Shown piece by piece: positions 33,494 to 58,228 of a stretch of 64,000 bases of DNA (position 1 is its first letter; each line of letters begins with the position of its first letter). Below the pieces are notes generated by a model. It searched no databases. It worked only from the letters and a program-made list of their open reading frames with translations, and was not told the origin of the DNA. Source of the stretch: Rotaria socialis (lineage: Eukaryota); assembly GCA_905331295.1 (NCBI GenBank), contig CAJNYD010000449.1, positions 124,001-188,000 on the forward strand, given 5' to 3'. The position numbers and the translations under genes are program-made.

Positions 33494-34864
33494 AGATATC
33501 TACAACAAAGTTGACTAGCATATATATAACAAAATATGAGCAATTTATGTCAATAATTTGATGTCTATTTGGTTGATCTACAAGTTTATACGAATGACTC
33601 ATCCATCATTTCTTAGACGAATCCATTAATACTTTTCTTAAGAGCATTTTTTTCAGTATAGGGTCAATCAAAAAAATTATTTCGTAGAAAAATCGGCTAT
33701 ATTTCAAAACAGGGTTTTATTATATTTTAGTTTTGACCATTTCTAGTTTCCATTATAGTTTGTTGGTGGCATAAGTAGTGTCATCTATACAAGACATGTT
33801 CAAATCTGAAAATAAGATTTTATCATTATAGCCTATTTTAAAATGAAATGAAATACGAGGCTTGAGAAATCGATAACTATAATCTTAATTGAAAAAGATA
33901 TGCATATAATAATGAAAAAGGAATAAGAAGACAAAATAAAGTGGAAATAAGTAAACTATCAATACTGCGTGCCATTATTTCACAAGTAAAGTTGTTGAAA
34001 TGATAGAAGTTGGTGAGATTGACTACACAGATCTTTCTTTTATGAGATCGAATAAAAAATAATCAGAAAATGAATTAAAATCGGTTATTCAAGGCAAATA
34101 TCTATCAATTTGTTCCTGTGCGCTGCACGATGTTTTAATCAAGTTTTGTCAATCATAGGAACGATCATGTAGGAAATAAATCAATGCATATCGGAGATTC
34201 AAATAAGTAGGTCATTGAATTTATTTGTCATGATTTAAAGTCAAAAACTTCCGAACAATAGCCTATGAGAATATTGTTCATCACTGATATATTTATCTAG
34301 ATAGATTGTCGTTTTTAAAAATAAGTTAAACAAAGATTTTGATTAAAACCGATTATTATTGAATCGAAAATTTATGATGACTAGAAATAATCTAAAAGCT
34401 AAATATTTTATTGATGTTTCTAATTAATAGCAATTAGAATGATTTAGAAATAAGATATTTTTTATAATCGAGATTAATAATAATCATGGATCGGGTTTGA
34501 TTTTCTTTGTGATCGGTTTCTAGTCGATTACATAGCTGTAATTTTTAAGCGTCCTGTTTTATAGATTGTGACTTCATTTTTGTCTCATTTTTTTCAACTG
34601 AATGCTTGCTATTGTTTTACATAGATGGTTTATTGATTCTATGATTTACACTGTTTCTGAAACTATGCCAATCTTATGTAGCCATCAATAGACTTTTTAA
34701 GATAATGAATGAATTGTGATATAGCTTGATCAGTGTTTCGGCTGTCTTGTTTAAGAAAAAGAGTTCAAATAGAAACAAAAAAGAAATGAATGCAATGTGA
34801 TTGTTATAATCAATTTGACATTTCACAAGCTAAATAATTTAGTCTTATATTAGTGTATTGTGAT

Positions 34865-35899
34865 TCAATAAATTGGTGGTACAGTTTGTGTTTCTATCCA
34901 AGCTCGTTGAGATGTTGGCATTTGCCATTGTTCAACCTATTCAAATTATATAAACAATATGAATTAATATGGATTATTCACTTGAACTTACTTGACACCA
35001 TTTTTTCCATTGATTTAATCGAATTAATAATTCGTTAGCATGTTGGACTTCTTGTCCAATATCAGTAAACATAAGTAGAATAGTGGTTGGTATTTGTGAT
35101 TGTTGCCTACATAGAAAATAAACTGGGAAAAATCTTTTAATTGAGTAGAATTTCAATCTACGTCGTATAAAATAATCGATTAGCAATGCCACCACCAGCA
35201 ATATAGTATCGATCACGATCTCTTACAATTTTATGATGATGTTTATCTTGACGTTCTTCTAGTACAATCCAATTCAGGTTATTTGAATCAAGTGTTGTTG
35301 ATAGATATCGAAATTGTTCTCTAACAAATATAACTTTTGTTTTTCGTCTAGCATTGTGAAAAAACATTCATACCCTGTTAATTGAACATCATTGCGTTCG
35401 ACTGCATTAAATGCAGTTAAAACAATTATTTCTTTTAATTGTTCATTTTTAAAAAATGTCAAAAGTTCATCAACAAATTCTTGTCGTTTACCCGATACAA
35501 TATTACCACGTTGTTGAATAACAAGTATTTTTAAACTTGGTTCTTCATAAACTACCATTGATTTTGAAAAAAAGTATTTAGTTTTTAGTATTTTACATCA
35601 CAAAATTTTCATATTACCTTCAATACCAAATGCCAAATTTTCTCTATTCGTATTTTCGTATGGATCATAAGCAATCACCGGTTCTACACATGTCCAATTA
35701 AGTATACGCACACTTTTCATATTTAAAGTATTAATTAAAGTATCTACCGCCAACTGTCCAACATGGCAATGACAAATAGATGGCTAAAAGATAAATCATA
35801 ATTTCAAAAAACAAAAGTTGATAAGGTAACCAAAAATCATCCTATTCTTACTAGAACTAATGTATATCCATTCCAATTTAGTTTTTCTGTTCCAGTCAT
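34865..35899 (-). CDS. PSMG2: Proteasome assembly chaperone 2 (PAC2), ~6 exons
   Basis: GYTLVL|PSICHCHVGQLAVDTLINTLNM, PVIAYDPY, IE|VYE...LVIQQRG and YIAGGGIA resemble the PAC2 family. Confidence 0.88.
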
Positions 35900-36181
35900 T
35901 TTTAAGTCTGAAAAGCAGATGCAGTTGAATAATTTTTAAAAAAAGCATAAAATTTGTTGAAAATTTTATTTTAAAGAAAATAAAAAATAGACCATAAATT
36001 GGTTCATACTCGTAGAACTATGTTATATGATTGCAAGCGTATCGTTTAAGGAAATACTGAATATCTTAAATAGGGAACACTAAATAATGATAATAATAAT
36101 ACAAGCAATAACTATCAAACAGTATATTCGTATGATAGATCACAAGAAATAAAAACAATATCTATCTGAGGAATGGACATT

Positions 36182-36431
36182 TTAGTCTATTTTGGGTTTT
36201 GTAAATTGTATAAGCGTTTCTGGTGAACGAAACAAGAAAATAATTTTAGCGAAAATTTGTTCTTCAATACGTAAAATATTATGTTCTCGAACCAAATAAA
36301 TATCACGTAAAAGATGCCAAAAGCGATCAACATTTGGTAATTCGTTAAACATAATTGTTTGGCTTGTTTGCAAGATTGTACGTAACAATCGTGCAACAAC
36401 AATCACAAATGTTGTATAGAGACCAATAATC
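36182..36431 (-). CDS. PIEZO: Piezo distal terminal exon (T2): inner helix plus CTD, closer to canonical
   Basis: Phase-2 acceptor aaatag|G at 36431; encodes (G)IIGLYTTFVIVVARLLRTILQTSQTIMFNELPNVDR...IFLFRSPETLIQFTKPKID*. Confidence 0.93.
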
Positions 36432-39400
36432 CTATTTAAAAATAGAAGAATTATTCGGATTAGCACAAGAAATTTATTATTACATCAATCTTAGTAAAGT
36501 TACGGAATAAATGAAAATGTTTACAGCTCGAAAAACATAACGAAAAACAATAGATCACTGATATCTGAACAGAAAAAAAACAAAAAAAAATGACTACTGC
36601 GTATTTGTTGTCTCTCGTGTCCAATAGAGTAACACTTGCGGATTACGATAAATATAAATTAAACGATCAAAAAAGTCAGCTTCAATTTCATGTTCCCGAA
36701 CAGTTCGTAATAAATAAATATCGGTTAAAAAATACCACAGTGCATCAACTTGTGGTAATTCATCAAACATAATTGTCTTCGTTGTACCAAATAATTGACC
36801 ACGAAGAAAAGATGCAAACACAGAAACAATTGAAATGTAGATACCAACAATACTACAGAGGATTTACATGTGAGAATCTTTTCAAATATTTCAAAAGGGT
36901 TAACAATTAGAACAACAAAGTTGTCCAACTAGTAAGAAGAAGAAGAAGAAGAACAAACTACTATAGATATTATACTAAAGAGAAAAATCAGCAAAGAAGT
37001 CCTTCATATCAAAAAAAAAGAAAACAAAAAAAAAACAATTAATAGAGCATGCGGTGAACATGAATGTGTTAGTTCCATATCGAGCAAAGCTATCAAAAAC
37101 AACAACAGTAACTATTGAAAAACTTACCCATAACGAGTTAGAAATGAAATATTAGCTGGTGAAATTTTATCATTAAAAAAAATCATGGTCATATAATTTC
37201 GACTGGGAAGCAGTGAACCTTTGAAAAAATGTTAAATAAATGAAATAGTTCCTTAATACAAATTTTTGAATGAGTCTTTAATATTTTATTTCTAATTGCT
37301 GATAGATTTTATCTTTCTACATGAAAATTTTACAAACAACTATCATAATTCTGTTCTGATTTTTTTTCTAGCGAACGCAATTGTCGTGAAACTCCCTGAA
37401 TTTCTATATATATATATTACCTGTTGATCCAGTTGATAGAAAAAAAAGATCCATCTAACAGACTCTTTAAGCTAGTAGGACCTCAGGAAAGCATTGTATT
37501 TTTTAAAAGTTAATGGTAAATTATCAATTAGTAAAAACTATTTTCATTTTCAACGTACATGATGCATTAAATCCATTTGCCCTTCGATTTTCAGACATTT
37601 CCCACCAAGCGCTTGTACTATTCGGTATTGATCTTGTCTGATAAACGCTCATAGTTATATTAGCATAATAGTCCCATAGAAAAACTAGATCAAATCAAAT
37701 ATCAATACAGAAAACATAATTTCTTTATGAATGAAAATACTTTTTTCAAATGCTTTAATGGAATCTGGTTTTGCTTTTGGTTTCACATGTAAAAATCGTG
37801 GCATTAACTGTACAATTGTAAATTCTCTGGACAAGAAAAAATACAAATATTGATCAAACTGCAAAGAAACTAAACCATGAAGTAAAACAAAAGTTTACCT
37901 TGTTCGTGTATCAAGAGTTCCATTAAGTATGTCAATCAATGCGTTTCGAGTTTGTCGATCATCTATTGCAATATTAGTTGTTTTTTCACCTGACACAACT
38001 GCAGCAATATCTTCTGAATCATCTTGATTTGGTGGATTACGTGTTATTGTGTATGAAAATCGTACAGGCACTGGTGTAGAATTTGATTTTAAACTATTTA
38101 TGACAATATCTCGTATTGGCTGACTTATTTCCCATAGATCGACACTTGTTGAAAATAAATTTACACAATGAATATCATTCGAATTGTAATCACGTAGAAA
38201 TGCATAAGCTGTGTCCTAAATACATTTAAAAAGCAAAATTTCTAAAAATTTTAAATGTCAAAGACGGTTTACTTCAATAGCTGGTGCAATCTTTGGTAAG
38301 TAAAGTGCCGCACGAAAGCTGTTATAATCAGCATTTGTAAATGAAGTTATGTCCCTATCTTGTGCCGTCATTTTATAAATTGGCTGTAAAGAACAAGAAC
38401 TTAAAATGACAAAAACCAAAATACTTGTAATGTTTTTTCTTACCAAATAACCACCTAATTTTATTTCAACACTAACTTCTGTTGGTGGATTGGGTTCATA
38501 AAATGATGAAGTAAATGAAAAAAACAATAATGGAAACCATATCAATAGAATTAATAAAGCTAACAATGAACCACCGATTCCATATTTTGATACTTTTGTC
38601 CGAGGTACACCACGCTTGGTTGGATATTTCTTGCAAAAAGGAAAAAAAAAGGAAAAAAATTTTATTCAATATTTTCTCATCTAGTTTTACTTCTTCTGCC
38701 CATCTTCCACACTTAAGTAAGTAAACATTTGAATAAATATCTTCTAATTGTAACCAACTTGTTAAGTCAAGTGCTGTATCCGTAAATATCCAATCCATAA
38801 TTGTACGTAATTCAAGTAAAAACGGTATAAATAAGTAACTGAAAACATTCTTATTATGAATATTTTAGCAAAAAATTTATAGAATAAAATTCTTACATTC
38901 GATAGAGTACTTGATTTACATAATTAAAACGTTTCATAAGAAAATTTCCTGCAATACGCTTTGGATAACCTAGTCGTACCTGTACTGATGAATAACCGAA
39001 ATAAACACATTTGAATAGATACCAAAATTGTGCCGCTACGTTTTCACGAAATTTTCTTTAAAAAAATTGTTTTCAACAATGAAAAAAAAAACAATTTGGA
39101 TTATTTCATACATTCGAGTTATTCCAGGTAAAACCAAAAATAACCAAACATGTACGGCTATGACTTGAAATAGTTGAAAGAACAATTTGCCGCGTACATT
39201 TCGACGTAAATAAAGTGCACGATCAATTATAATTAATACAAATTGAATTAATAATATAACAAGGAAAGCCACAGGAACCTTAAATATATTTACTCATGAA
39301 AAAACAAACGATTCACTAAACAAAGGGTTTTTACTTTATTTTCTTTTATTGTTTGTACTACATTTCCACCACTTTGTTCCTAGGAATAAAAAAAAATTAA

Positions 39401-42400
39401 GTTTAAATAATAGAAAACTCGATGCGTGGAAAATCATTTTCTTTCAAACTTTATAACTATTATAGGAATACTATCCCTACAGTGTCCCGAACGTTTCTTT
39501 TCTTAGCGAAATAGTAAAATTGTTTGAATTAAATCATACTGAATGTCTACTAGTCTAAGAGTCAGACTTGCGGTGAATCCAATTGATTTCGTGTAATCAT
39601 ACGAAATGAAGTACTGTGGTGGAAAATATTTCTTGCAAACTAGTTTTGTAATGGTAGATTTTTACATGCAATAGACAACTATGATCACTATAGGTGATTA
39701 ATTTTTCTGGATACTTTTACTTAATTACAATTAGAGGAAAATCTTTTAAACTAAAATAAAGAAGAAAATTATTTGAAAGTACATACTCCAAATTGACTAT
39801 AAAAGGCAATAACAATAACCATATTAACAAAATCACAGAAGAACATGGGTGCATAAACGTCACGAACAAATAATGCTTGTTTCAGTTGGCGATAGAATTT
39901 CATAATTGATTTCATAAAATATATATTACTGAAAAAAAATAAACATTAAGCTATACAATAAAATACGTATATAGCTACTGAAGAACAACAAAAATAAACT
40001 AAGAGAAGATTTAAACATGCTCGACTAACAAGTTTTTCTATGTGTGTTAATATTCATACCTCATGAAGTATATGAATCTGTTGTGTAATTTATATATACA
40101 TATACATAAATACATAGGTGTAGCTATAATATAAGAATTAATTTTTAAATCACTCACCTTTTTATGCGTGGTTTTTCTAACTGATCATCTGATTGTTGTT
40201 GTTTTTGTTGTTCTTCATTACGAGCGGTATGTTCAGTTATAGAATCTAAATATGCAATCAATAGAATTATGATAGTATTTTAATTTTTTCGCCAAACATA
40301 TATAATCATGATAGAACTGTGCTCTAATTACAACTTTCATATTACAAGTAGTTTACTTTACATAAACGTAACAATGGGAACTATTCTCGGAAAGAAGAGG
40401 TTTCTTGTAAAGAATATCGTTAGTTCCATCCAAAACTATGCTGATATTGAGATTTAATTAGCTTAATCATGCATTGAAAGTTTCATATATGACAAATATT
40501 TTGCATTGTCAAATAGTAAATGAGAAAGGAGATAGAGTTTTTCTAAATTGTTACTAAAATATGTTTATTTCTTTTTAAAGGCATGTTATCATAAGAAGAA
40601 AAAGTTTATTCTCTCTTCAAATTCTGCTTTATGAATGAAAGTCAAAGCATGTTCTCTTGAGTAATATTTTATATCAATATGATTACTTTGAAGTTTTTAT
40701 GACGTAATATTCTCAAACTTAAAATCTCAGTAAAATAGTCCTAACTAGTGTTCGGTAACTCGAATTAATATGAAACTAAAGAATCGAACCGAAATTTTGA
40801 AAAAGATACGAAAAGTTTGATTTCGTAATACTATAAAATAAATATTCTATCAGATATGTCTAAAGCTGTTTTAATTCCGTGGTATCTGTAATTTCATGAA
40901 ATAACAAGTTAAAGTTTGTCAAAGGGAACTTTATAATTGTTGCATATTTATCATGATTTATTGATTCTAATAGTATGTAATAGTTTAGGAAACAAGCTCT
41001 AGTCACTTCTGGAGAATAAAGCAACAAGACATCAAATGATTATCAGTTTTGTTTAATTACACTCAGTAAATTCTATACAAGTGCATGGATACTGTACTAA
41101 AAAACAATTCTATCACTTGAAAAGATGTGCTGTTAAAGTTGCATTGTGCGAGCAAAAGAAAATTTTAATTCTTTTACGTACTAATTGGTGTTGTTCGTTC
41201 TGATTTCCAAAGTCCGAGTTGCTAGAACGGGAGAAAATGAAAAGAAATAAGAATTTAAATTCTTTTAAAACTTATACTTTTAAAATAGATCGATGAAGAA
41301 ATAATGATAAAAGTAAAAATAAATCAGCAAATGAAGTAGCACTTTGTTTTCGATCGATTCCAATAATGTTTACTGCTGCTAGTGGACGAACATCTGCTAT
41401 GTCAGCATTCCATGGATAAAATCGAAATTGAAATATATATTCAACTACGATCATGGCTTCTGTATATGTCAAAATAGTAATCCAAAAATTTCGTGTTGGC
41501 CGTGGTGATAAAGTTGCCCAAAGAAATATTGATAATGGTAGTGGGATTGATAAAAGTGCGCCGCTTGTTAAATGATCTATTATCATAGCTGAATAGCATA
41601 GAAGTTCAGATCGAGACATTGTTAAATAAAATAGAGAATCGAATAAACGGTAAAGACGTGAATGTTCACTTAATGGAATCGATTGAGATACTTTTCGAAG
41701 AGAAATATTCCTATGTAATAATAATAACAAGTAAAAATAAGACTAATCTAAGAAGAAATTTACCGAGATTGTTGACCACCACCACCACCACTACCATCAA
41801 TCATGTCATTGATGCTAATTACCGAAGTCTAGACAAGAATAAAAAAGAATGAAGATTTTTAGCGAATAATTTTACAATGAAAAATTTACTAGATCAGAAC
41901 TTGTTTCCATTCGCATTCGTTGTTTTTGAAAAACTTTGTCTTCCACTTTCATTTCAGCTAACTTATTTGAAACTTCGCGATAATCACGAGAATTTCGATT
42001 AACAAAATCAATAAAATAGTCAACAATAATCCAAATAATTAAACGAATTTTAAATAAAATCTGTTTTTGTCTTGTTTTCAGTTTTTCTTTTTAAAAAAAA
42101 AAGAAATAAAATCATTAAAAACTATACGATAAATCTCAAAAATATAATAGTCTACCTTTGGATTCAACAGATGTTGCCTGTTCAGGTATTGTTGAATCTG
42201 GCATTGTTTCCATTGTTGTGGATGAAAGAGGAGGAGGAGGAGATCGTGGTCTTATAATTAGTTCTTGAACATTTGATTCAAGCACAGATGATTTTCGAGG
42301 CTCTGTAAGAGAGAAATTAGCATTCATTTGTGTGTTTTTCTTCATTTCAAAAGTAAAATTTACTTTTAAGTGAGTCACCAATACTTTCATCTTCATCAGT

Positions 42401-45400
42401 TGCTACTAAAACTTGAAAAATCTATTTAGAAAAAAGAAAAGAAAAACATTGATATAATTTTTCTTTCGTTTGAATTTCTTCGATTATGAGTAAACCTGAT
42501 TTTGAGCAGCATCAGCTTCATTTTGTGCTCCCTCATCGTCATCATCTTCTTTTTTTTCGTCTGATTCATAATCAAACATATAATAATCAGCCGATCGTAT
42601 AGCTATAATAATTCAATAAAATATTTTATTTAAATTGATTCTAAACAAACCTTCAAAATGTTCAGATGATTCTGTCAGTGTCGAAGGACGTATACTCTCC
42701 GATTTATTCAATTTCGATTGTTGTTCTTTAATTCGTTTTAAATTTCGAGTTATTTTCGATACGGTTTGTTCTTCACGTAGACGATCTTCTTCCATTCGTT
42801 TCAGTGATATTTGATTAAATAAAGCAGCACCTTGGCTAGCTAATTTAGCTTGAGAACGAAGTTCAGTTACAATATGTTCCCAATAGTAACTACCAAACAT
42901 TCGTTTTTGCAATAATAAAAATATCATACAAACGCCATCCCTTCAAATAATACAAAATTTATTTTTATTGTACGATTATCAATCTTAAATTGTAGTGATT
43001 TGTTTTATTTATACAATAAAATCGATGATGACAGATTTTTTTAATTATGACATTTCGTAGAAAGAAGAGTGTGAGTGAGGATGAGGATAAGGGTAAAGAT
43101 GATCCCAACACCGACATCCTCAAGATTCAGCTAAACTTTTAAAAATATCTTTTTTTTTATGCTTAAATAGATGTATCTTTGTAAATACTACATTTTGTTT
43201 AAAAATAAATAATGTGAAAATAGTGTTAAGAAATAATGATGATCAAAACTATGTTAATTTATTTGGTGATCAAAAGTATTCTCACCCATTAAAGATGTGC
43301 AAATATACGAATGATCTATTTATTACTCCTTAATTGTAGAAAATTTTGTATATTACATTGTTATTTCTCTAGAAAAATCTCTCAATCAAAAGCTTTCTTC
43401 TGTCTATAGGAATAAAATTGTCATCGAATTAATATATGACATTATCATAATTTTATTTACATAAAAAGACTGGCATCAGCAGCATCTCGATCACATTGTT
43501 CATTAGGATCTAGAATTTAAATAGCACAAAACAAAATGAATTTAATGTACCATACGAATAAAATAGAGAACATCTAAATAGACTTACCCTTATAAGATAC
43601 ATAGCAATCACTTGACGGTTTAAAATAAGATTTCAAACATGGTACAAACAAATCCACTATTATGCAAAATGAAGAAGTGCGCGATGTCATCGTGCAAGTT
43701 GAAGATGGATAAAGAAGCATGCAAACTACCACCTAGAGAAAACATTCAATATATGACATCAATTTTCTAATTAAACTATTAGATTTAAAAAAGAAGAAGA
43801 AACACGCTTGATGAAATAAAATACTGATCCTGAAATGCATCTATACATTCAAGAAGAGTTTGAAAATGAGAAAAAACCTGTTACAGGAGTATTGCTAGGA
43901 TGGTTGAATCTCTGAATTCCTGATTGTAAACAAGCTATTGCAAAGACTTGTTGTATTAAACATTGACTTGATAGAACACCAATGCAAGCAACAACCTGAA
44001 AGTTTTTATCTCTCATTTGCCTAGTATTATTATTTGATAGAAAGAAAAAAGACCATCATCATTCAGATTTCTCCTGGCATACCTGTAAACATGTCTTTAA
44101 AAATATTACTGAAAAACAATAGTATATTAAATAGTTCCACCTAAAAACAAAACAAAAATGAAATGCAAGAAAATGTTCAAAATAATCAACATACGATCGT
44201 AACATAAAAGCGACACGTTTTGTTAAAAAATCTTGACCATACCAAAGAAAATAAAAGCATGCTATAAGATAACCAAGACCAAGTAGACTAATGCGTGTTG
44301 TTCCAGCAAGATAAACAATCGATAAAACAACCCATACGCCATACATAAATACTGCATATTTTATATGATCAAGCCAATGTCGTTTATTTGTTACAAAATC
44401 CCATGTTGGATTATTTTTGTACATATCGTCATCGTAAATTATTTCACGATTTGATCCACCAGCATCATTATACACGTGATCCTTTTCGTTTGTTTCATAT
44501 GCAAATACACGCCATTGTTGACAAGCAAATAGAAATTGAAAGAAATCAGCTACAAATGATTTAACATTTACAGAAGTATTTAATAAATATTAAGTATATA
44601 TATATATATATATATTACTAATCAACTGGGTTGCCAATGGTGGATCTATATAATCGGGCAGATGAAGCCAATGTCTCAATTGTGGCCAAACTCGTATATT
44701 GATATTTGTCCATGGATACTCTTAAAATGATTTGAAAAATTTATTAGACTATTCGAACAAAACTGTAAAATGAATGTCTATCTCAAAAGATGTTCATCTT
44801 ATGATTATTATGTATGAATATAAGATAATCACTTCTTTTTCAAAGCAAAGGATATCGATAAATTCTCTTCTTCTGCAATTTGTCGTATAATTAGACTGAA
44901 TTCTAATGATTATTTTGGGTGTTTGAGTCAAAAACATGATGAAAGTAAAAATTTCTTCTATTTAAATCGTGAAAACGAAAACCAACTTGGTTTGTGAAAG
45001 CAAAAGCCTTCATCCTGTTCATAATTATGAAAATCAGTGAGATATAAGAAAAGACTAAAATGAAAAATTTCTCAGCTGGGATCAATCGAAAGCTAAGAGT
45101 GTTCAATTATGTCGGCATGAGATTATAGTTTTCAGCAAGTTACCATGCAAATCAAAATAGAATGACTTAATGGCTGTTTTCGAATCTAATGGAAAAATAA
45201 ACTCTGAAATAGTTTTCTCTTGATCAAAATTAAAACTATGCGGTTATGCGCATCTCTAATCCTGAACTGTAGTTCTCTATAATACATCTTTTATTCTTTA
45301 AGAATAGAGACATCGATAAGTGTCTTCTAAGTCAGGACGAATACTTTTTTGAAATATGAAAGATTACTTTGAATTCAAATACTGAATAGTTAGATGGACA

Positions 45401-48400
45401 TTCCAAAAAAAAATAATTTAATCACTTACCAAAGCATAGAATCGGTGGTGTTCCAACAGCAATCATGTATTGCAGTGGAAAAGCAATAACTTGAAATAAA
45501 ATATAAATAGGCCATAATCTTCGCACGGCTCGTCGCCTTGAAATCAAAAATAGGCCAAGCCATATGGCATAAAAAACAGCAACGACGTCAAGACGAACAC
45601 TGATAACAATTATTGTTGTTATATAGCATATCTAAAGAGAACCGTGATAGATATGTTTAGAAAATGTCTCGAATTAGACATCTTACTTCTAAACCGAATC
45701 GATAAAAGAGAAAATTCAAGAAATATTTAAAGAAATTCTTTAAACCTTGATCAGCTTGTTGATAACTAGTAATATCATGTTCGTATGTATCATCATGGAC
45801 ATTTTTTAATGCAAATGGTTCAAATAAAATTGGGAAACGATTTTCAATAAGATGAACATTAAAATGAACTGATAATGTTAAACGACGATGTCTTTGCCGA
45901 TATCGTACAATTGCATCAAGTGTTAAAACAATTGTTAATATTATATACGTCTAAAAAAGAAAAATCTATCTTTGTTTTTTTTCTGCTTGTGCTTAAGAAT
46001 TTTATTTCTTTTTACGCCAATGAATTGACCCATATTTGATGTTAATTCAAGACCAAACCATTTTGCTGTGTCATTAGGTATTATATTGGCAGCTGAGCCA
46101 AGCGTAACATTTAAATTGAACGTCATATTCGAATCCAATGTCATATTTGAATCAATCTAAATTAATTGTTTAATGATTTAAAAATAAAACGTTGTTCTTT
46201 TTGATCATTTTACTTTAGAGCAACTTTTAACAAAAATATTTTTTTCAATTATTTGTTTTTTTGCTATTTCTAACTGATAACACATTGATGCAAGAATATA
46301 AATGCCAGTAATAATTAATGTTAATAAATTAATTAATGACCGAAGACGTAATAGTGTTAAACCGATGGTTGTTAAAATAATTAATGATATATTAAATGCA
46401 CAAACCTAAACAAGAACGAGAATGAATAATAATAATTGTTGCACTAAACAAAGATTTCGACTATATTTCTTTTACTTTGAGTGAAGCAACAAGAACCATC
46501 ATGAAAAGAACAAGTTTGTATGAATGTAATTCACCGAAACGCCAACTATAATAAATGATTTGCTTATAGAAACGATTGGCTCGAAAATAAAATTTATATA
46601 AAGTTTCTAGCCAAGTTTTCGTTTCATTCTTTAGTATCTGTTGACTATGAAGGCTGTTTACATGTTCAGTATTTTCTAAGCATAAAGATTGAAAATGAAT
46701 AATAATTAAAAACAACAAAGAAAAGAAATTTTACGTTTTGCATAAGCATGAATATCTTTTAATGTGCCATTTGGTATTCCTTGAATGTTTTTATCACTAG
46801 AAAATTATACGAATAAAACAAAATGGCTTATTCTATCGAAAAACAATGGTGATAGTTTATGCTCTTCGTTAATAACAGACAACTCAAAGAGAAAGAAATA
46901 TGTTAATTATTACGATGATCATATACATATTATAGTTTACATGTGGAGCGAGGTAGATCATGCGTATTTATGTTCATGGTATGTGAATCTTTCTTGGATG
47001 AAAAATTAACGATCAGATACTATAGAATCATATAGAATTTATTAAAAACATAATTTACGGGAAATTGCACACTTGGAGTTTCGCTGTGTTCTCAATCTTC
47101 CACAGTTATCAAAAGCCCTTCGGAATTAGGACAATGAGTGCGTTTTAGATGCAATTGTAACTTGATTTCGACTTCAAAAGCATTTGCGAGCGGAACATCA
47201 TTTATACAACTAAAGAATCACTAGAACTCGTGGAACAGTACAACTAAGCAACGGTGATTATCACTGTGAAATCACACCATTGCCATTTGTTCATTAATTT
47301 GTGCAACAACAAACAAACTGGATTCAAATTTTATTCAGTTTGTTTGATATAGATACAATTACTTTAAAACTATACTCGACAAGTTTATCGGCTATAGATA
47401 GCGATCCAATGACAGTTAAAATTAAGAATAGTCAGCTCTTAAATAAACTTCAACTGTAATCCATGTTAACGTTGATACGATCCAACGTGCGCAGATGAAA
47501 CTCTCGTGTGTGAAAACGATTTGTCTCGAAAATTGTCTTTTCCTTATTCAACTTCTAATGTTACGCTCATCTTTATGTGAAGCATGTATATTTTGTCTAT
47601 TTTCTTCTGATTTTCAGCATACTATTAGGCACAAATAAAAGCTTATCAAGTAATATCCACTGAACTTAAATGATAATTTTTAACTTTGTATTTATCTAAA
47701 AATGAAGAAATCTGTGTTTCAATCAAGCATAACAGTGGTGCATATGGTATGTTTCTGATGAAAATCAGACAGTAAGACATGCAACAATGAATGATCGTTT
47801 CCAAATTCTATCTTATATTAGACGATAAAAAGTTCAGAAAAAATTGATATTATCATAATTTTTTAAGAAATTTCGACAACTGTAGAAAATCGGCCACATT
47901 GCCCAATTTCTAGTGCAATTCGAACACTATCCAGATTCTGAATGTTCAATGTTCAGTAAATAATAAAGAATATGCTGAGCATCATTCAACGCATGTGAAT
48001 CCTTTAGAAACCCATTGCATTGCATAGAAATCATGTTTGTACTATTCAATTTTATCTTTTCTAGAAGATTCATTGATAAATGTTTTGAACATAGTGTATG
48101 TGATCTTCATTTCATATTTAAAAAAATAGATACTTCAAGATTCGTTGATCTAAATTAACTTTTTTGTCTTCACTAATAATGTTGACCGATTTTCTTGTAT
48201 ACGACTACAATCTGTTGACTAGAAATTAGCTGATTATTGCTGAGACGGTGTATGTCTTTCTCTCTATTTAATACAGCACAGTCATTGTCTCTCCGAATGA
48301 TACCAAAAGAAACCGATTTTTCGAAGTTCTACTTCCAATATAACAGGGTAGTTCATTCTGAATGCTTTCGAGTTTTTTTTATTTATCCTATACGATCTTT

Positions 48401-51400
48401 ATTCTTGAATAAATGTTGTAATTCTGCAGCAATTAAATAACAGCGTGGAATCTGTGTATATCATCTACAATATCTTGATGCCATAAATGATACCCATTTT
48501 TTTGGACTGAAAAGCAATTAACCTATTCGAAGACTCTCTTGGTAATTATCATAAGTATTCTAGTTTTTCATTCGCATCTATCTTTTCCTTCAAATTATTT
48601 AAACTACTAAAAATCAATTTCTCGAACTGTTATCGTAAGAAAAAAAAACAGATCTTTTCTTCATCCTATATAGTCATTCAAAAGAATAACAATGCAAGAA
48701 AACTACCTGGGCATCGTAATTAAATCCATCCAACCAGAATGAAAATAATAAAGTTGCATAATATTAACAATAAGAAATGTGCTTGGTGTCAATAATCTAA
48801 CAGCCAAAACGTCTGATGCAACAGCTTCAAGTCCAATTGATGCAAGGCTTGACGAGAAAAAGAAAACAGTTAGACTATAAAATATCTGTTATTCTTCTTC
48901 TTCTTTTTAATTAAACCTTACATTTCTGGACTAAATCGTGCTAATAAAAAATTTTCAACTACTTTAAACTAAAATATAAGAAACAAATTAAATATTATTC
49001 AAATTATTCGAGAGCGTCACCTGATAAATATATATTCCAATTAAAATAATCATTGAATAGATGATAATCGTTAAATGAAATGTAGCTGCTGTTCTCCGCC
49101 AAAATCCAAATGAAATCTTCAAATAATAAAAAAAATTGTTTTTGCATTTTGTATTACTCAATCTGTTTTTACTTGGAATGAAAGAATGAAGAATAAATAA
49201 AAAGCCATGTAGATTATTCGATAAATCACAACAGTATTCTGAATGCTAACAAGTAGCAGCATTCCACATGAAAAAAATATCCAATATTTTGTTAAAATAT
49301 TAATCAGCCATTGTCCTATAATACATATGAAATGCTTTTTTGATTATTTAAAAAAGTTCAAAGATTTTTACCAAATCGTCGCGGATATGAATCAGGTGAT
49401 CTACTGAATCGTTGATCTATAAAGAGAAGACAGCATATGAATACTTGTGGATTAAAAAAAATGTTTCTACATAAACAAATAAATTTTTTGAAACCTAAAT
49501 CAAAAATTTTTCGAATATAGCTAACCTTCAATGGTTGAAACATTAGGATTTTGCCGTTCATTTATATATTGTCGAAGTGTTAACCAAAAAAACATCATAT
49601 ACAATGACTAAGGAGAAATGAAGAATGAAATTTTGATTCCTGTCTTTTTTATTTACATACTTTAGCAAGTAATGGTACGAAGGCTGGATAATAATCATTC
49701 GTTTCGATGCCAATTTGTTTCATCGTTTGACGATCATAGGCAAATTCAAATTGATCAAAACTTATGTTGAGACCGCATATATATTGTAATGTTAGCAATA
49801 TTCCACCATAAAGTGTAAAAAATGGACTCATTCTTAAACACCACTTTCGAGAATTGGGTAATACCCAAAGAAAGCATGCCCAAAGAAGAAATACTAATGT
49901 TATTAAACTATGAAATGTTATACTCCATACCTAAATAGATTCATTTATAACGATATTAAAATTAATTAATATTCTTTTTGTTTTACCAGCATAGAAATTA
50001 TCGATAGTAAATAACTTTGTCTTTCTAATACACGAAGTAACGATAATGCAATAAAAACTATTCGTTCTTGCCATGTATGATCACCAGGTTGCTCTAGGCT
50101 CCATCGATTTGATGATTTTCGAGGGCTTTGTTCTGACGTATCAGATCTTTCGACAGTTTTAACTAAACTCTATAATATTTACAAGCAGAATTAGTAAATA
50201 TCATTATGGTAACAATAAATCAAGCTTTGACATTTAGATTAAGGAAATCAAATAATAAATCATAACAAAAAAGTGAATTTCAATGAATTATTAGTACATT
50301 GAAATCAAATATTGGGAAAACCTAATACAATAATGATAGAGCATTTAGAGGCTCGGCAGCTACAAAAAGCATAAATACTAAATTTTACGTTTATTTAAAA
50401 AGGAACAGTACTCACTAACAACTTAACTGGCTAGAGCTTTTCGCCAAAAATGGACTGATAAAGAAAATGAATGCCCCATTATTGCACAAAAGAAAAGGTT
50501 TAATCTATGGAGATTTATTGTAACGCACTATTCGAAGATCTTAATTCATATTGCCCTACCGTTTATATTATATTAATCTGATTTATTTTCTGTTTTATAA
50601 CTTCTACACGCAGAATAGAATAAACTACATCAATAATTAAATGTTCCCAGATATGTAAAAGATCTTGTGCTAGACAATCATTGTGCTAAATTTTTTCGTG
50701 CTGAGTTTCCACCAACCTTTCTTGCTTTATACTTTTTTTTTTGATTCAATACATAGAAGACTACTCATACAGAAGTGTAGAAAAGCATGCAGCCGAATTA
50801 TATATGAAAACAAAGGCAAACCTGTTTATCGGCACTGCGACGAAAATTCATCTAATTAATTTACATGCAGAATATGACACAAGCAAATGATTGAAACATG
50901 AAATAATGATATAATTTTATTCTTAGCCCATTTCTTACCTGTTGTTCCATAGATTGTAGTGTTGTACTGTTCAATCGTATTTTCTGAATAAGAACAAACA
51001 AATTGTTTTCTAATAGACAAATGATTCATTTCATTTACTCGTCGAGAAAGGGCTCGATCCGTTTCAAAAACAAGATAGAAATAAAGCAGCATAATAGCAC
51101 CCGGATTGACATAATCATTCCATGCAAGATTTGTTGCAAGATTTGGTTCATTTTTTGTACAATTAGTTGTTACAATGGCTGTTAAACCTGTGATGCTATT
51201 AAAAGAATTCACAAGATAAACGCATGCATATCAATTTTCTCACGCTAGATTTTACTTACTTGCTCCATAATGAAAATGGAGTTATAAATTCTTGAAAAAA
51301 TGTAAATTGATAGAGATAAAGAGTAAGTAAATGTATGGCCGCATAAATGACTAATAAGGAACGGAATAATACAAATTTTCTACCGAATTTGACAGATAAT

Positions 51401-53520
51401 GACCATGTAAATGCCATAATAATAAAGAAAATGAAATAAACAGAATTGATTATACTTGGATAGACGAATGCAGCACCACCCACAAAAATAAATTGAATAA
51501 ATAGACGTATACGTCGTATTATTGACAGTACGCGTTGCCAAAATTTCCCCTTATTTGCTCTACTGATACTGTTAGTTTTTGATGGTGATATATTTGTTTC
51601 ATTTGATATTGCAGATATTTGTAGTTCGGCAGTTTCGCGTCGTTGTAATTTCACTAGTATACGCCGGATAATAATAAAACAAATTGTCGATACAGCGAAT
51701 ATGATGATATCAGGAAAGACCAATCGTATGATTCGAATAACGTCAGCATTATCCAAACTTTAAATTAAAGTAAACAAAAACAAAAATAATTTACACTATG
51801 ACAATTATCTTTTTGTTCAAACATACCGTTCCAGACCAAAATATCGAAGAATCAGAGTAATCGTCGTACCTAATAATAAAGTTCACAATTAGTTACTGTT
51901 ATTTTTTACTGATTTCAATAATACATACAACTATTGAGCGTATGACCATAAGGCTTTTTGGCAACAAGAATGGATTGAAAGATTATTTGAGCAATAATAG
52001 CGACAAGACTAATTAAAGCAACAATAATGATAAATAAACGATAACGAGCTAAAATATATTTCTCGGGGTTTATAAAAATGAAACATTTATTTATAACTTT
52101 ACTTCGAATATTTCGTCTGTTTATTGAACCTAGCCATGGAATAGCAAGTAGAAGAAAACCATAGATAAACGAAGCAAAACTGTATCGGAAAACAGTTCCT
52201 AAAGATTTTTGAGTTAAATTAATATATTAATAGTAAAAAAACTTTTATTTTTACCGCTGAACAATACAATAGGAAGAAGGATGAATAAAAGGCCAGTTAA
52301 GATTGATCCACTCATGAAAGATAAAGACCTAGAGATAGAATTTTTTTTAAAAATGAGTCTATAAATAATAATTATACAATCAATTTTTCTTTCTATATTC
52401 AAGCGTCATGAATTCTATTTGAATAGAATGTCAAAGGTTCTTATAATTCAAACTTTGATTTAGTATTGCCATGCCGTCGACAACTGCAAATGTTAATGGT
52501 AATATCTAATATCGGCAAGAAATTCAGTCACGTCTGCACTAACTATTTATGTGCAATACTTTAACCTTCATTGTTAGTCTTGAATAGTATTTTTCATTTA
52601 AGGGAGGGGGGGGGCGTGACCCCCCAATTTTTGATTCAATAGGCTCATTTTTTTACGTATATCCAAAAATTTGTCTTCTGGCGTCTATAACTCGGACTAG
52701 GTACACCCAGATAAAAATAAAAATTGGAGGATATACGTAAAAAAATGAGCCTATTGAATCAAAAAAGTGGGGGTCAAGAACCCCCGCCCCCGTTAACAGT
52801 AAAAATACAACAGAAAAAGAGATCATATAGACAAAGGTTTTAACTAATTAATATATTCGAATAATGTCCTCTAAAAAGCCATATCCGTCGTATGATTGCA
52901 ATAGAAGCATTAATCTAGAGACTCCAAGATCATTGTATATTTCGATATCTATTCTATTTTGTTTCTATTCAATCTGAAACACGTCAGTTTTTGTTTCTAT
53001 TCAATCTGAAACACGCCAGTTTTTGTTTCTATTCAATCTGAAGCACGCCAGCTCTTGTTTTTAGAGAAAATTTTTTTTCCTGCTACAGAGATTAAAAAGC
53101 CTCGATAATACTAATAAAGAAAAAATAGTAATTATTGAAGTGGCCCATGTGACTAATGACAATGGATTTCTGTCATTCATAGAAAATATCTTACTTCTCA
53201 TCAACTACCATGGATAATGTAGGAATTAACATAGGATCATGAGAGGATATAATCGATATATTTCTTGGAGCTTCTATTATATTATTTCTTGGTAATAGTT
53301 GATCAGATTTGGATAGATAGATTTCATCTTGTTTTGCTGGTATTGAATTGTCACGAGTATAATATCGATCCTTATTAGGATCGCTGTCATAGTCATTATT
53401 TGTTGTTTGTCTTCGTCTTGGTTGTGGATGTTGAAGTTCAATATCAAATGTATTATTAGATGATAGTCTTCTATTTGTAGAATCAGTTGAGTTTAAATCA
53501 GCTTTATTGGAATACATCAT
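36182..53520 (-). CDS. PIEZO: Piezo mechanosensitive cation channel, many exons, with alternative pore/CTD terminal exons
   Basis: Conserved Piezo blocks: VFRYSFASFIYGFLLLAIPWL, IRSADYYMFD (latch), IIDRALYLRR, PFLLELRTIMDWIFTDTAL..WLQLEDIY (anchor), LLIWFPLLFFS (outer helix), FFNDKISP..FLTRYG|I(I/V)GLY, IMF(D/N)ELP and FLFRSPETLI. The canonical-looking ATG is at 52315; an upstream in-frame exon extends the CDS to 53520. Confidence 0.97.
36594..36852 (-). CDS. PIEZO: Piezo proximal terminal exon (T1): second, divergent inner helix plus CTD
   Basis: Phase-2 acceptor ctgtag|T at 36852; encodes (G)IVGIYISIVSVFASFLRGQLFGTTKTIMFDELPQVDA...IYIYRNPQVLLYWTRETTNTQ*. The ORF is intact. Confidence 0.88.
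43588..43732 (-). CDS. PIEZO: Piezo mutually exclusive exon B (145 nt)
   Basis: ctctag|...|gtaagt, phase 0 to 1; encodes VVVCMLLYPSSTCTMTSRTSSFCIIVDLFVPCLKSYFKPSSDCYVSYK. Confidence 0.8.
43878..43995 (-). CDS. PIEZO: Piezo mutually exclusive exon A (118 nt)
   Basis: tttcag|...|gttttt, phase 0 to 1; encodes VVACIGVLSSQCLIQQVFAIACLQSGIQRFNHPSNTPVT. Confidence 0.8.
52602..52792. mobile_element. MITE (~191 bp) with ~64-bp terminal inverted repeats, flanked by TTAA
   Basis: Left arm ...gacccccca..ttttgattcaataggctcatttttttacgtatatcc is mirrored by ggatatacgtaaaaaaatgagcctattgaatcaaaa...tgggggtc. TTAA at 52598-52601 and 52793-52796. Confidence 0.88.
52957..53052. repeat. 32-bp tandem repeat (3 copies)
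   Basis: gtttctattcaatctgaaRcacgYcag starts at 52961, 52993 and 53025. Confidence 0.92.
53195..53520 (-). CDS. Probable upstream coding exon of Piezo (108 codons of hydrophilic, disordered sequence)
   Basis: The ORF ends in GAG AA|gtaaga, a strong phase-2 donor. It matches the phase-2 acceptor tctctag|G TCT TTA TCT TTC ATG at 52329/52328. Confidence 0.7.
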
Positions 53521-54751: not shown

Positions 54752-57298
54752 TTTTATGTTAGTAGTTTTTTTTTGGATTCTGTTAGAAAGATAAGAATCT
54801 GAAATTTCCAAGAAGAATTTCACTTATTATTTAATACTTTAAAAGTTTTATATTCAATTCAATAGGATGCTATAAAGACAACGACAACTAAAACAAAAAA
54901 TAAATAAATATGAAACACTTTGATTATGATCCGAATGGTTTGTTCTCCACCTATTCACCATCGATCCTTTCACATACATCAATCCTCTGCAGAAAACTTG
55001 AAATATAGCTAGTAATAGAAAAACTATAATGAAAAACATTTATAATCAATAGAAAACCCATTGGAATTTAAATTTAAACATCAAAAACAAATATCAAGAG
55101 GATTTCATGAACAAATATTATAGATGTCGTAAGGCGATGTAACGTTGCATGTGCCTGTTATTATCAAATTGTAATACTACATGAGAAAAAATATCAGATT
55201 CTTCAAAATTAATATCTTGAATTTCATATAATTTCAGCTGCTTATCACCAAAGTAATGCTAAAAAAATATTATCTACTTGCAATAGTCTAAATAAATCGA
55301 GCTTTCTTTACATAACAGTGTCGTGAGTTCTCATTGACAATCATCTATGAACAATAAAAAACAAGCCACAATTGTACTACTATTAAAATCGCAGCGATTC
55401 AATGAATTATACAATAAAAAAAAATGCATCAAATCTCACATCATACTGTTCAACATCTTGTTTATTATACTAAATTCACGTTGATATATTTTCACTCTGA
55501 AATCGGTATCAATTATTGTTATCGCCATTGAAACTTCATTGTTTGTGATCGTTTCTGTGCAGATGAATCTAGAATTATGAGTATACAATTAATACTAGGC
55601 ATTACTTTAGTTTTACAAAAATCATACTATAGAAAGATTCTTTAGAAATGCCTTATCACCCGAACACTGAAGACAATGAGTAACATTCTAAAAAGTGACT
55701 TAAACCTACTCTAGTATTGATTCGTCATTGAATATTCATTCTGCAGAAAATTCTAACTGGCGTGTGCTGAGATGTTTCGGATGTTTTTTCACTTGCATTT
55801 GTGAAATAGATCATGGTAGCTCTAAAATATTCAGCGAGTGTTTTAGATTTCGTAATCAGAATAATCACAAGCTCATACAGAGGTATTGACTCAACAAGAA
55901 TAGTCCTCACCACTAAAAACTGAGTTAAAAAACATATATACATGTGATACAATACGCTCCTAGTTCAATATCAGTACAGCAAGTAGAAATAATTAGTAAT
56001 TTGATGAATAATATGATTCATAATTTAAAGTACGCAATATAAGGTTATATGATGTTTGTTCTCATCCAAATGGCATTAAAAGACTCGACATCTGCATCAT
56101 GATAAATGCTACGATTGTTGATCATATAAATGAGCTACCACCGACAATTAATTTTAATTGTTAGCTATGTCAATAATACTCAGTTCTAATAGCTATTCAA
56201 GTGTTGAACTTCTAAAGCAACAGCAATTCGTGTGAATATGGACGGTACGATACTATGTAGTTTTAGTATCACCCGTAAATATTCACTTCATTTCCATTGA
56301 TCTGACAAATTCATTTTGTCGTATGAATGTTGTTTATTCTATTGAAGAGTATCTCTCTATGCATTACATTATAGAAAAAAAAACACAATTTGCTTTTTTT
56401 TTTACTATTATTGAAAGATTCAATAAGACAATAAGGAAAAGCTTAGTTCCAGAATTTTCTCACTCAAAAAAGAAAACTAACTAAAAGTTAAACCTTGAAA
56501 AACGCTTTCAAGATCGATTTCATTGCACTACTATTTTTAGTGCCCTTGTTTAAACAATAAAAATTGATTAATGTAAACTTTAAACATTTTTTGTTTGTCA
56601 CCTTATTACGTTTTGTTACTAGTGAAATTTGCTCTCTTCGTTCGTCTTTCACTGTATGTCACTATTTCATATGTGTACACTTGACGAATATAAATAGAAG
56701 TGGCATATGGTAATGCATGTCGATGCATGATTTCAGACATATTGATCTTGAGGGCTTTCATTCTTTTATTTCAAGATTGAGAAAAGTACATAGCATAACA
56801 TCTTTACGTTCGCCGTAGTATTATATTTCATTACTGTTCTCACAGTAATTTTATATTTTTAAAAAGCTTTTCACCTTAAATAAACATTTTGGAGAGTAAA
56901 AAGACTGGATATTTTTTTTATACGACAACATGACCAAATAGAAACCTTCAGTTTAGTAAGGCCCCTATCGTTCTAACATCGTATTGGTTCATCATTGTCA
57001 TAGATTATTGGCCGGTTCTGAACAACTTTTACATTAAATGATTCATTGACCTATAAAACATTAAAAAATGTTTTTTTCTCTTTTTCATAAAAGTACGATT
57101 AACTACAGATGTATCACGACGATAACGTATGCTCTCTATTTTTTCATTGTGTAACAATTGTCTTGTAGACGTTATATATTGACAAATTCTTTAATAATTT
57201 TAACAATAATTATTCCATTTTTACTTTGCTGTTTAATGTGACTTACTTTAAATATATGATTAATAGATAGATTCATGTCATTTATTTTTCAGATAAAA

Positions 57299-58228
57299 AT
57301 GTCGCTCGATACATTAACTCTTGCAATTATTGGTGGCTTTGGAATTATTTGTGTTTCTATTATTTATCTAATCAAAAATAAAAGTTCATCCGGTAATACT
57401 AAACAGAGTAAAAAAAAGAATGTGATAATTTCATTGGCAAATCCTGACACAAAATATAAATTTCCATTAGCGCACAAGGAAAATATTTCCCATGATACAC
57501 GTCTCTTTCGTTTTCAACTTCCATCAACAAAACATGTGCTTGGTTTACCTGTAGGTCAACATATTTATTTAACATCCCATATCAACGGTGAACTTGTTAA
57601 ACGACCATATACACCAACAACATCTGATGATAATCAAGGCTATTTTGAGCTTGTGATAAAAGTTTATCCTAATGGTAAAATGACTCAGTATCTTGATAAA
57701 TTTTCTATTGGCGATGTGATTGATGTTAGTGGCCCATCAGGTAATCTTATTTATACAGATAATGGTTTATTTGATATACGTCCACGCAAACAAGATCCTT
57801 TCGTTACTCGACGTATTCATAAGCTTGGTTTAATAGCGGGTGGCACAGGTATAACACCAATGTATCAAATACTGAATGAAATATTGAAAGAACAAACATC
57901 CAATGTACCTGGTGAGCGTATCGATATAAAAATTTGGCTTCTATTTGCGAATCAAACTGAAAAAGACATTTTATTACGTGATGAATTAGAACATTTGGCT
58001 GCATCGAATTCTGATCGTTTTAAGTTATGGTATACAGTTGACCGTGAAAGCGAAGAATGGAAATATTCAAAAGGTTTTATTAATGAAGATCTATTGCGTG
58101 AGCATATGCCACCTCCAGGTGATGATGTTTTAATATGTATTTGTGGTCCACCACCAATGGTTAAATTTGCATGCATACCTAATTTGGAGAAATTAGGTTA
58201 TGCTGAAAACATACGATTTACATTTTAA
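57299..58228 (+). CDS. CYB5R: NADH-cytochrome b5 reductase with N-terminal membrane anchor, intronless CDS
   Basis: ISHDTRLFRFQLP...LGLPVGQHI, RPYTP (FAD binding), GKMTQYL, IAGGTGITPMYQ, LLFANQTEKDILLRDELE and CGPPPM. ATG at 57299 follows a tttttcag acceptor. Confidence 0.96.
   Translation: MSLDTLTLAIIGGFGIICVSIIYLIKNKSSSGNTKQSKKKNVIISLANPDTKYKFPLAHKENISHDTRLFRFQLPSTKHVLGLPVGQHIYLTSHINGELVKRPYTPTTSDDNQGYFELVIKVYPNGKMTQYLDKFSIGDVIDVSGPSGNLIYTDNGLFDIRPRKQDPFVTRRIHKLGLIAGGTGITPMYQILNEILKEQTSNVPGERIDIKIWLLFANQTEKDILLRDELEHLAASNSDRFKLWYTVDRESEEWKYSKGFINEDLLREHMPPPGDDVLICICGPPPMVKFACIPNLEKLGYAENIRFTF

Follow-up and report, generated by a model that had tools for sequence, protein, structure and literature searches.

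The window analysed here, a 64,000-nt stretch of Rotaria socialis DNA, has the composition of AT-rich animal DNA with short introns and carries on its minus strand a multi-exon Piezo gene (Table 1). The gene was recognised by colinear tblastn matches running from 51486 to 36191, with an intronless 2082-aa bdelloid-type Piezo ORF (from locus L012) as the query; five Piezo Pfam domains are found on this query, and the architecture is that of Piezo, in which blade, anchor, cap and pore domains follow one another along a large multi-pass protein. At its 3' end lie two pore exons, which we call T1 (proximal) and T2 (distal). As T2 is 98% identical to a protein record from Rotaria magnacalcarata and an RNA from the locus bears a rotifer spliced leader, we assign the gene as a bdelloid rotifer Piezo.

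Downstream of Piezo lies a PAC2-family gene, whose leader joint falls about 40 nt past the T2 poly(A) site, an operon-like spacing; a PAC2 gene also follows T2 in nine loci from metagenome relatives. Between 31000 and 54800 the minus strand is tightly packed with RPS19, two short unidentified ORFs, Piezo, PAC2 and a WD40-repeat gene, and the RPS19-Piezo-PAC2-WD40 strand block is possibly one long operon. At 57260-58228, on the plus strand, there is an intronless FAD/NAD-binding oxidoreductase gene (cytochrome b5 reductase-like) among intron-rich neighbours. An intronless Piezo of 2082 codons followed by an intronless PAC2 occupies positions 1-7059 of L011 and 1-6246 of L012, whereas both genes have many introns in the window; these two loci may come from a bdelloid-like lineage with few introns, or may have arisen by retro-copying of a polycistron. 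Upstream of the penultimate Piezo exon, the intron at 37219-37558 measures about 340 nt, compared with the usual 55-70 nt, and contains a TA repeat; an unspliced 228-nt contig of run X2, one of three runs considered below, covers this intron, which is a candidate internal promoter.

Table 1. Features at the 3' end of the Piezo gene and of its downstream neighbour in the window.
Feature	Coordinates	Strand	Basis
Piezo gene, bdelloid rotifer, multi-exon	35948..52405	minus	Colinear tblastn; 5' end approximate, from ORF list
Penultimate exon, ending just before the inner helix	37128..37218	minus	5' boundary placed by eye
Phase-2 GTAAGT donor of penultimate exon	37127	minus	Spliced alignment; present in 7 related loci
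T1, proximal last exon (inner helix and C-terminal domain, CTD)	36594..36852	minus	Alignment; open frame; in-phase acceptor
AG acceptor joined to rotifer spliced leader, 28 nt past T1 stop	36565..36566	minus	Run X1
Short-RNA first exon, 81 nt, with 5-codon upstream ORF, ending in AT	36484..36564	minus	Contig; translation
AATAAA, likely T1 poly(A) signal	36473..36478	minus	47 nt before T2 acceptor
Short-RNA intron, 52 nt, GT-AG	36432..36483	minus	Joint in run X1
T2, distal last exon and 3' UTR	35948..36431 (coding to 36182)	minus	Alignment; open frame; RNA contig
T2 AATAAA; poly(A) site	35970; 35948	minus	Poly(A) tail seen in RNA contig
PAC2-family gene	35001..35909	minus	Spliced contig with same non-genomic leader end; Pfam PAC2 on intronless relative in L011

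The presence of two pore exons is confirmed. A complete inner helix and CTD are encoded by each, Pfam PF12166 matches both (T1, E = 5e-23; T2, E = 2e-30), and the exons are 44% identical, that is, they differ at 56% of positions. In an alignment to full-length mouse Piezo1 (reference PDB 5z10, 2547 aa), residue 1 of both exons corresponds to position 2466; T1 aligns over 80 residues with no gaps, and T2 with a single gap in the linker after the helix that leaves the register unchanged on either side. By mouse numbering T1 has Ser2475, Val2476, Ser2479, Asp2495 and NPQ at 2535-37, and T2 has Ile2475, Val2476, Arg2479, Asn2495 and SPE at 2535-37. An earlier note on this DNA had made the same residue calls by eye, and the formal alignment for which it asked bore out all of them, with their numbering, and did not shift the register. 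The pore signature of R2482, MF (M2493/F2494), E2496 and P2536 is found in T1 and in T2, both of which thus have the 2496 acid. The predicted structure of T1 has four helices (pLDDT 73.5) and all eight of its structural matches were Piezo structures, a result not independent of T2 and other Piezos, as these were in the alignment from which the fold was built; a single-sequence fold of P0078, a protein of the penultimate-plus-T2 type, reached a pLDDT of 34.

The two exons are predicted to share a splice donor. A spliced alignment of the last 557 residues runs in stop-free frames from the donor of the penultimate exon into either exon, across an intron of 275 nt to T1 or 696 nt to T2, and the T1 acceptor is an in-phase TAG in 7/7 loci. 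The pair thus has the form of alternative last exons: homologous, in phase with one donor, and each with its own stop. A poly(A) signal also follows each exon, that of T2 with an observed tail and that of T1 as a conserved AATAAA alone. This AATAAA, likely the T1 poly(A) signal, lies 45-47 nt ahead of the T2 acceptor in the window and in 8/8 relatives with a long spacer; 0/13 control introns have this hexamer at 40-52 nt, and three loci with a short spacer have it 26-39 nt before the T2 acceptor. A T2-type end closes the intact, intronless 2082-codon Piezo ORF of L011 and L012, and T2 is thus able to end a full-length channel. Three spliced-looking proteins that join the penultimate exon to T2 (P0011, P0024 and P0078) were set aside as transcripts, because intronless genomic loci exist.

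Of 115 confirmed stretches from a metagenome scan, 80 were retained, and identity to T2 reached 80% or more in 17 of these. Among these 17 close loci, T1 stands ahead of T2 in 12 (about nine distinct sequences), T1 is absent and T2 directly follows the penultimate sequence in four (two distinct sequences), and unrelated DNA lies upstream of T2 in one (L021, excluded from the spacer counts); in L015 and L016, T2 directly follows the penultimate exon. A gene model from Didymodactylos carries both exons strung together, T1 before T2. No second pore exon was found in 63 non-bdelloid loci, many of them short and most seemingly close relatives of each other. Both exons are under purifying selection, with mean dN/dS, over 21 pairs from seven loci, of 0.166/0.68 (about 0.24) for T1 and 0.085/0.43 (about 0.20) for T2. 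Copies of T1 are less alike than those of T2 (74% vs 88% identity), and form one group on a long stem branch (support 100/100, seven loci). In L010 (1776-1834), L013 (4217-4319) and L014 (1808-1887) we observed a second copy class, with a more divergent T1, a short spacer that has no leader acceptor and no PAC2 match within the contig; this class may represent the second homeologous copy within the bdelloid genome.

The distinguishing residues of T1 are largely conserved. Ser2475 is present in six of the seven T1 copies that have a whole helix, with Phe in the other (L003), and the Didymodactylos T1 has Leu; the start of the helix is missing from T1 in L014. Position 2479 is neutral in all seven copies, all of which also have NPQ or NPE, and position 2495 is variable (Asp in five, Glu in one, Asn in one). 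All 17 T2 rows, which include near-duplicates, have Ile, Val or Leu at 2475, Arg2479 and a non-acidic residue at 2495. By comparison, a search of 1.84 billion representatives clustered at 50% found Ser2475 in none of 133 other Piezo pore domains, Lys or Arg at 2479 in 115, and NPQ in one, itself a bdelloid T1; 29 of the 120 domains scored at 2495 are non-acidic there. The Ser gate of T1 is unusual, and the 'MFNE' of T2 (Asn2495) is ordinary variation.

Reads from three small-share runs, whose kind was guessed as RNA, were placed on positions 34800-40000 only. The resulting contigs cover neither T1, nor the penultimate exon, nor either Piezo junction; these gaps are uninformative, and depth cannot rank the genes. 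In run X1 we found three contigs, with at least 99% identity, one of which (606 nt) is a separate T2 RNA that the earlier note had not anticipated. Its 5' end consists of 21 non-genomic nt; the genomic part starts after the AG at 36566-36565, continues from 36564 to 36484, skips the short-RNA intron and proceeds through T2 to the poly(A) site. The non-genomic end has no counterpart in the window, corresponds to the published 23-nt rotifer leader and recurs on the PAC2 gene at 35909. This is a spliced leader, non-genomic and joined at an AG acceptor, and a short T2 RNA exists in this species, on one contig from one run. A 215-nt piece within T2 was recovered from run X3. The word share of run X1 was 0.14, compared with 0.15 expected from the short RNA and the PAC2 piece alone, which is a hint at most. 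Bdelloids are known to trans-splice a spliced leader (PMC1925144), and its 23-nt sequence has been tabulated (PMC3795323); the leader and its use of AG acceptors are the same here as in the published accounts, but the present acceptor differs in lying between two pore exons, inside the 3' end of Piezo and before the proximal poly(A) signal.

Removal of the 52-nt intron joins AT to G; the AUG so created is in the T2 frame and falls where the inner helix begins. The resulting ORF has 83 codons and comprises the inner helix and CTD only, behind a 5-codon upstream ORF. The leader acceptor (CAG/ATAT) is kept in 7/8 aligned relatives, L008 being without it; CAGATAT matches in L010 and L014 fall in T1 coding sequence and were excluded from this count. 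The donor that makes the AUG was found in the window only (0/8 aligned relatives), and in L001 and L009 no choice of GT donor yields an in-frame AUG. Across relatives, then, we did not find the conserved start codon and frame that would mark a micro-protein gene, and a conserved micro-protein is not supported by these alignments. As the start codon is not conserved, the likeliest origin of the short T2 RNA is as a by-product, formed when an operon-like transcript that runs into PAC2 is resolved. The conserved acceptor itself may process or limit T1 transcripts, or may act as a third acceptor that stops Piezo before the pore; splicing from the penultimate exon to position 36564 would meet a stop within five codons in 7/8 loci.

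Comparable pairs are present in predicted gene models of other invertebrates. Two oyster RefSeq isoforms, X1 and X2 (XP_011438487.1 and XP_011438488.1), are identical up to the junction and differ exactly from there on, and the representative search returned a Mya arenaria model (WAR12852.1) with two whole pore modules in tandem; as in the rotifer, two versions of the whole inner helix and CTD follow the same junction. Unlike rotifer T1, neither oyster version has a Ser gate, and because both keep Leu2475 and Arg2479 the Ser gate looks rotifer-specific. We found no published account of these mollusc Piezo C-terminal isoforms in the literature searched. In two Timema gene models (P0085 and P0133) the inner-helix exon alone is present twice, followed by one CTD exon; the two copies are likely mutually exclusive internal exons. 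In our trees T2 falls close to an acanthocephalan Piezo, and T1 joins P0185 on a long branch, possibly through attraction. P0185, an ENA sequence from a more distant organism, has a T1-like pore exon with a neutral 2479 and DPS instead of SPE, and joins T1 through long branches. An AU test rejected neither a T1 + T2 clade (P = 0.33) nor T1 with the first mollusc copy (P = 0.15); with 83 columns, trees do not separate one origin from several.

Searches of the openly accessible literature revealed no description of a rotifer Piezo or of Piezo pore exons that have been duplicated. Among other channels, the Drosophila Shaker A/B variants use alternative 3' exons to swap a pore-lining helix and the C-terminal tail, altering inactivation, in the unrelated potassium-channel fold. 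In mammals, splicing of Piezo1.1 and of Piezo2 variants tunes conductance, Ca2+ permeability and sensitivity (PMC12490864), a likeness to what we propose for T1 and T2; however, the mammalian variants are cassette exons, such as that of the lateral plug, and none of those listed there swaps the pore helix or CTD. In C. elegans, PEZO-1 isoforms G, K and L from one gene differ in inactivation, L being non-conducting, but these isoforms differ by truncation of the N-terminal blade, whereas the rotifer forms differ by pore exon (PMC12951647).

The earlier note had argued that polar gate substitutions slow inactivation and that neutralising K2479 changes its voltage dependence, and both premises agree with published mutants. 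The inactivation tau of mouse Piezo1, 11.9 ms in the wild type, rises to 62.2 ms with L2475S and falls to 2.8 ms with L2475I, and Piezo2 L2750S likewise slows inactivation (PMC6349400); K2479Q abolishes voltage dependence and also speeds inactivation (review PMC10531961). The single L2475S and L2750S mutants conduct normally, mouse Piezo1 P2536G/E2537G has reduced current and faster deactivation, and the Piezo2 double gate mutants LV/SS and LV/QQ are non-functional (PMC6349400). Thus T1 and T2 carry naturally gate residues that have been engineered in mouse Piezo1; however, the mouse mutants are single changes in a mouse background, whereas T1 combines changes of opposite effect in a 44%-identical exon (PMC6349400, PMC10531961). 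The conclusion that T1 is slow therefore stands as to the direction of its gate and falls short as to its net rate, which is not readable since Ser2475 and a neutral 2479 pull in opposite directions. The claim that T2 is faster agrees in the same way with the direction of Ile2475, but mouse single-site data need not transfer to exons that differ at more than half of their positions. Inactivation is, moreover, multi-locus, with contributions from the cap and blade (PMC12951647), which are common to the T1 and T2 forms.

The safest prediction from the residues is that T1 likely loses the voltage dependence of inactivation; T1 may be slower rather than faster, towards which the balance tips slightly. 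T2 is probably the conservative, default pore, likely with fast, voltage-dependent inactivation (hydrophobic gate, Arg2479). In mammalian Piezo1, single-site changes at E2495/E2496 affect conductance and Ca2+ permeability; in the literature consulted, these two residues are mentioned only as part of the 9K mutant, in which nine sites are changed together. The different permeation that had been ascribed to T2 from Asn2495 is a weak argument, because loss of this acid is common elsewhere and is seen in one T1 copy, and the acid at 2496 is kept in both exons.

We consider it probable that the tandem pore exons are alternative last exons giving two full-length channels predicted to differ in gating: neither exon is damaged, both fit the phase of one donor, their order is conserved, and purifying selection acts on each. 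Splicing to T1 would be followed by cleavage at the AATAAA just before the T2 branch point and acceptor, and skipping of T1 would lead to T2 and the distal poly(A) site; the two choices would exclude each other, given where the presumed T1 poly(A) signal lies. Were both forms made in one cell, mixed trimers would be possible. Several observations count against this explanation. The sole RNA joint seen into T2 starts at the short exon rather than at the penultimate exon of Piezo; T1 is dispensable in some relatives, being absent from 4/17 loci (two distinct) and lacking its helix start in L014; and Ser2475 is not universal in T1, as the Phe of L003 and the Leu of Didymodactylos attest. A gating difference is further complicated by the faster inactivation of K2479Q (PMC10531961) and by the part played by the shared cap and blade (PMC12951647), and the oyster pair, with Leu2475 and Arg2479 in both members, indicates that a gate contrast is no general feature of such pairs.

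Alternatively, where both exons exist, Piezo might end only in T1 and T2 might be a separate mini-gene, whose leader-capped RNA would encode a stand-alone inner-helix + CTD protein (83 aa here, or 56 aa from an internal Met) acting to tune, block or complete the trimers of Piezo. The T2 contig is spliced, polyadenylated and leader-capped, matches at 99% identity or more and places its junction AUG exactly at the helix start; the leader acceptor is widely kept, and splicing of the penultimate exon to it would leave a pore-less Piezo. Yet the acceptor is missing from L008, the AUG-making donor from all eight relatives, and any in-frame AUG from L001 and L009; any exon ending in AT would give AUG, for which we estimate a chance of roughly 1 in 8 in AT-rich DNA, and a 5-codon ORF precedes the start. 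As T2 also closes a full-length Piezo in L011/L012 and directly follows the penultimate exon in L015/L016, we regard the mini-gene as rather unlikely. A modular kit, in which two full-length pore isoforms are joined by an 83-residue pore protein from the trans-spliced RNA, is a doubtful proposition; that protein would enter trimers by exchange, block them, or complement a pore-less Piezo produced by splicing to the conserved leader acceptor. The chance that a functional stand-alone pore protein exists appears to be small.

Other readings concern T1. It might be a full-length but non-conducting or modulatory subunit, a mixed-trimer partner or signalling form instead of a slower channel; its long stem branch and its departures at near-fixed sites (Ser2475 in 0/133, NPQ in 1/133 and that one a bdelloid T1, 2479 neutral) are consistent with this, as are the non-functional Piezo2 LV/SS and LV/QQ mutants (PMC6349400) and the non-conducting isoform L of C. 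elegans (PMC12951647). T1 retains, however, R2482, M2493/F2494, E2496, P2536 and the predicted fold, and single L2475S or L2750S mutants conduct normally (PMC6349400), which makes a non-conducting T1 quite unlikely. That T1 is a decaying duplicate, no longer spliced in, might be suggested by its loss or damage in some relatives and by its lower identity among copies (74% vs 88%), but its frames are intact and its in-phase acceptor conserved at a dN/dS of about 0.24 (seven loci, mean dS 0.68), and it is also present in Didymodactylos; we find this very improbable.

Probable alternative last exons that swap the pore, with a natural Ser-vs-Ile gate, and a trans-spliced pore-only RNA are what is new here for Piezo. 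The splice variants described for Piezo in the sources consulted alter the plug or blade, not the pore (PMC12490864, PMC12951647), whereas in this gene two whole pore modules have been maintained in evolution behind a common force sensor. With Ser (T1) and Ile (T2) at the site where the same substitutions shift mouse Piezo1 inactivation by about 22-fold, the pair offers a natural test of the hydrophobic-gate model and of the L2475-K2479 interaction. The short RNA, if translated, would give a pore-only Piezo protein, for which we found no precedent in the literature searched, and the modular kit, if true, would be a naturally split mechanosensitive channel. Together with the mollusc and stick-insect cases, this suggests that invertebrates have repeatedly diversified mechanosensing by duplicating pore exons, a route that has been overlooked.
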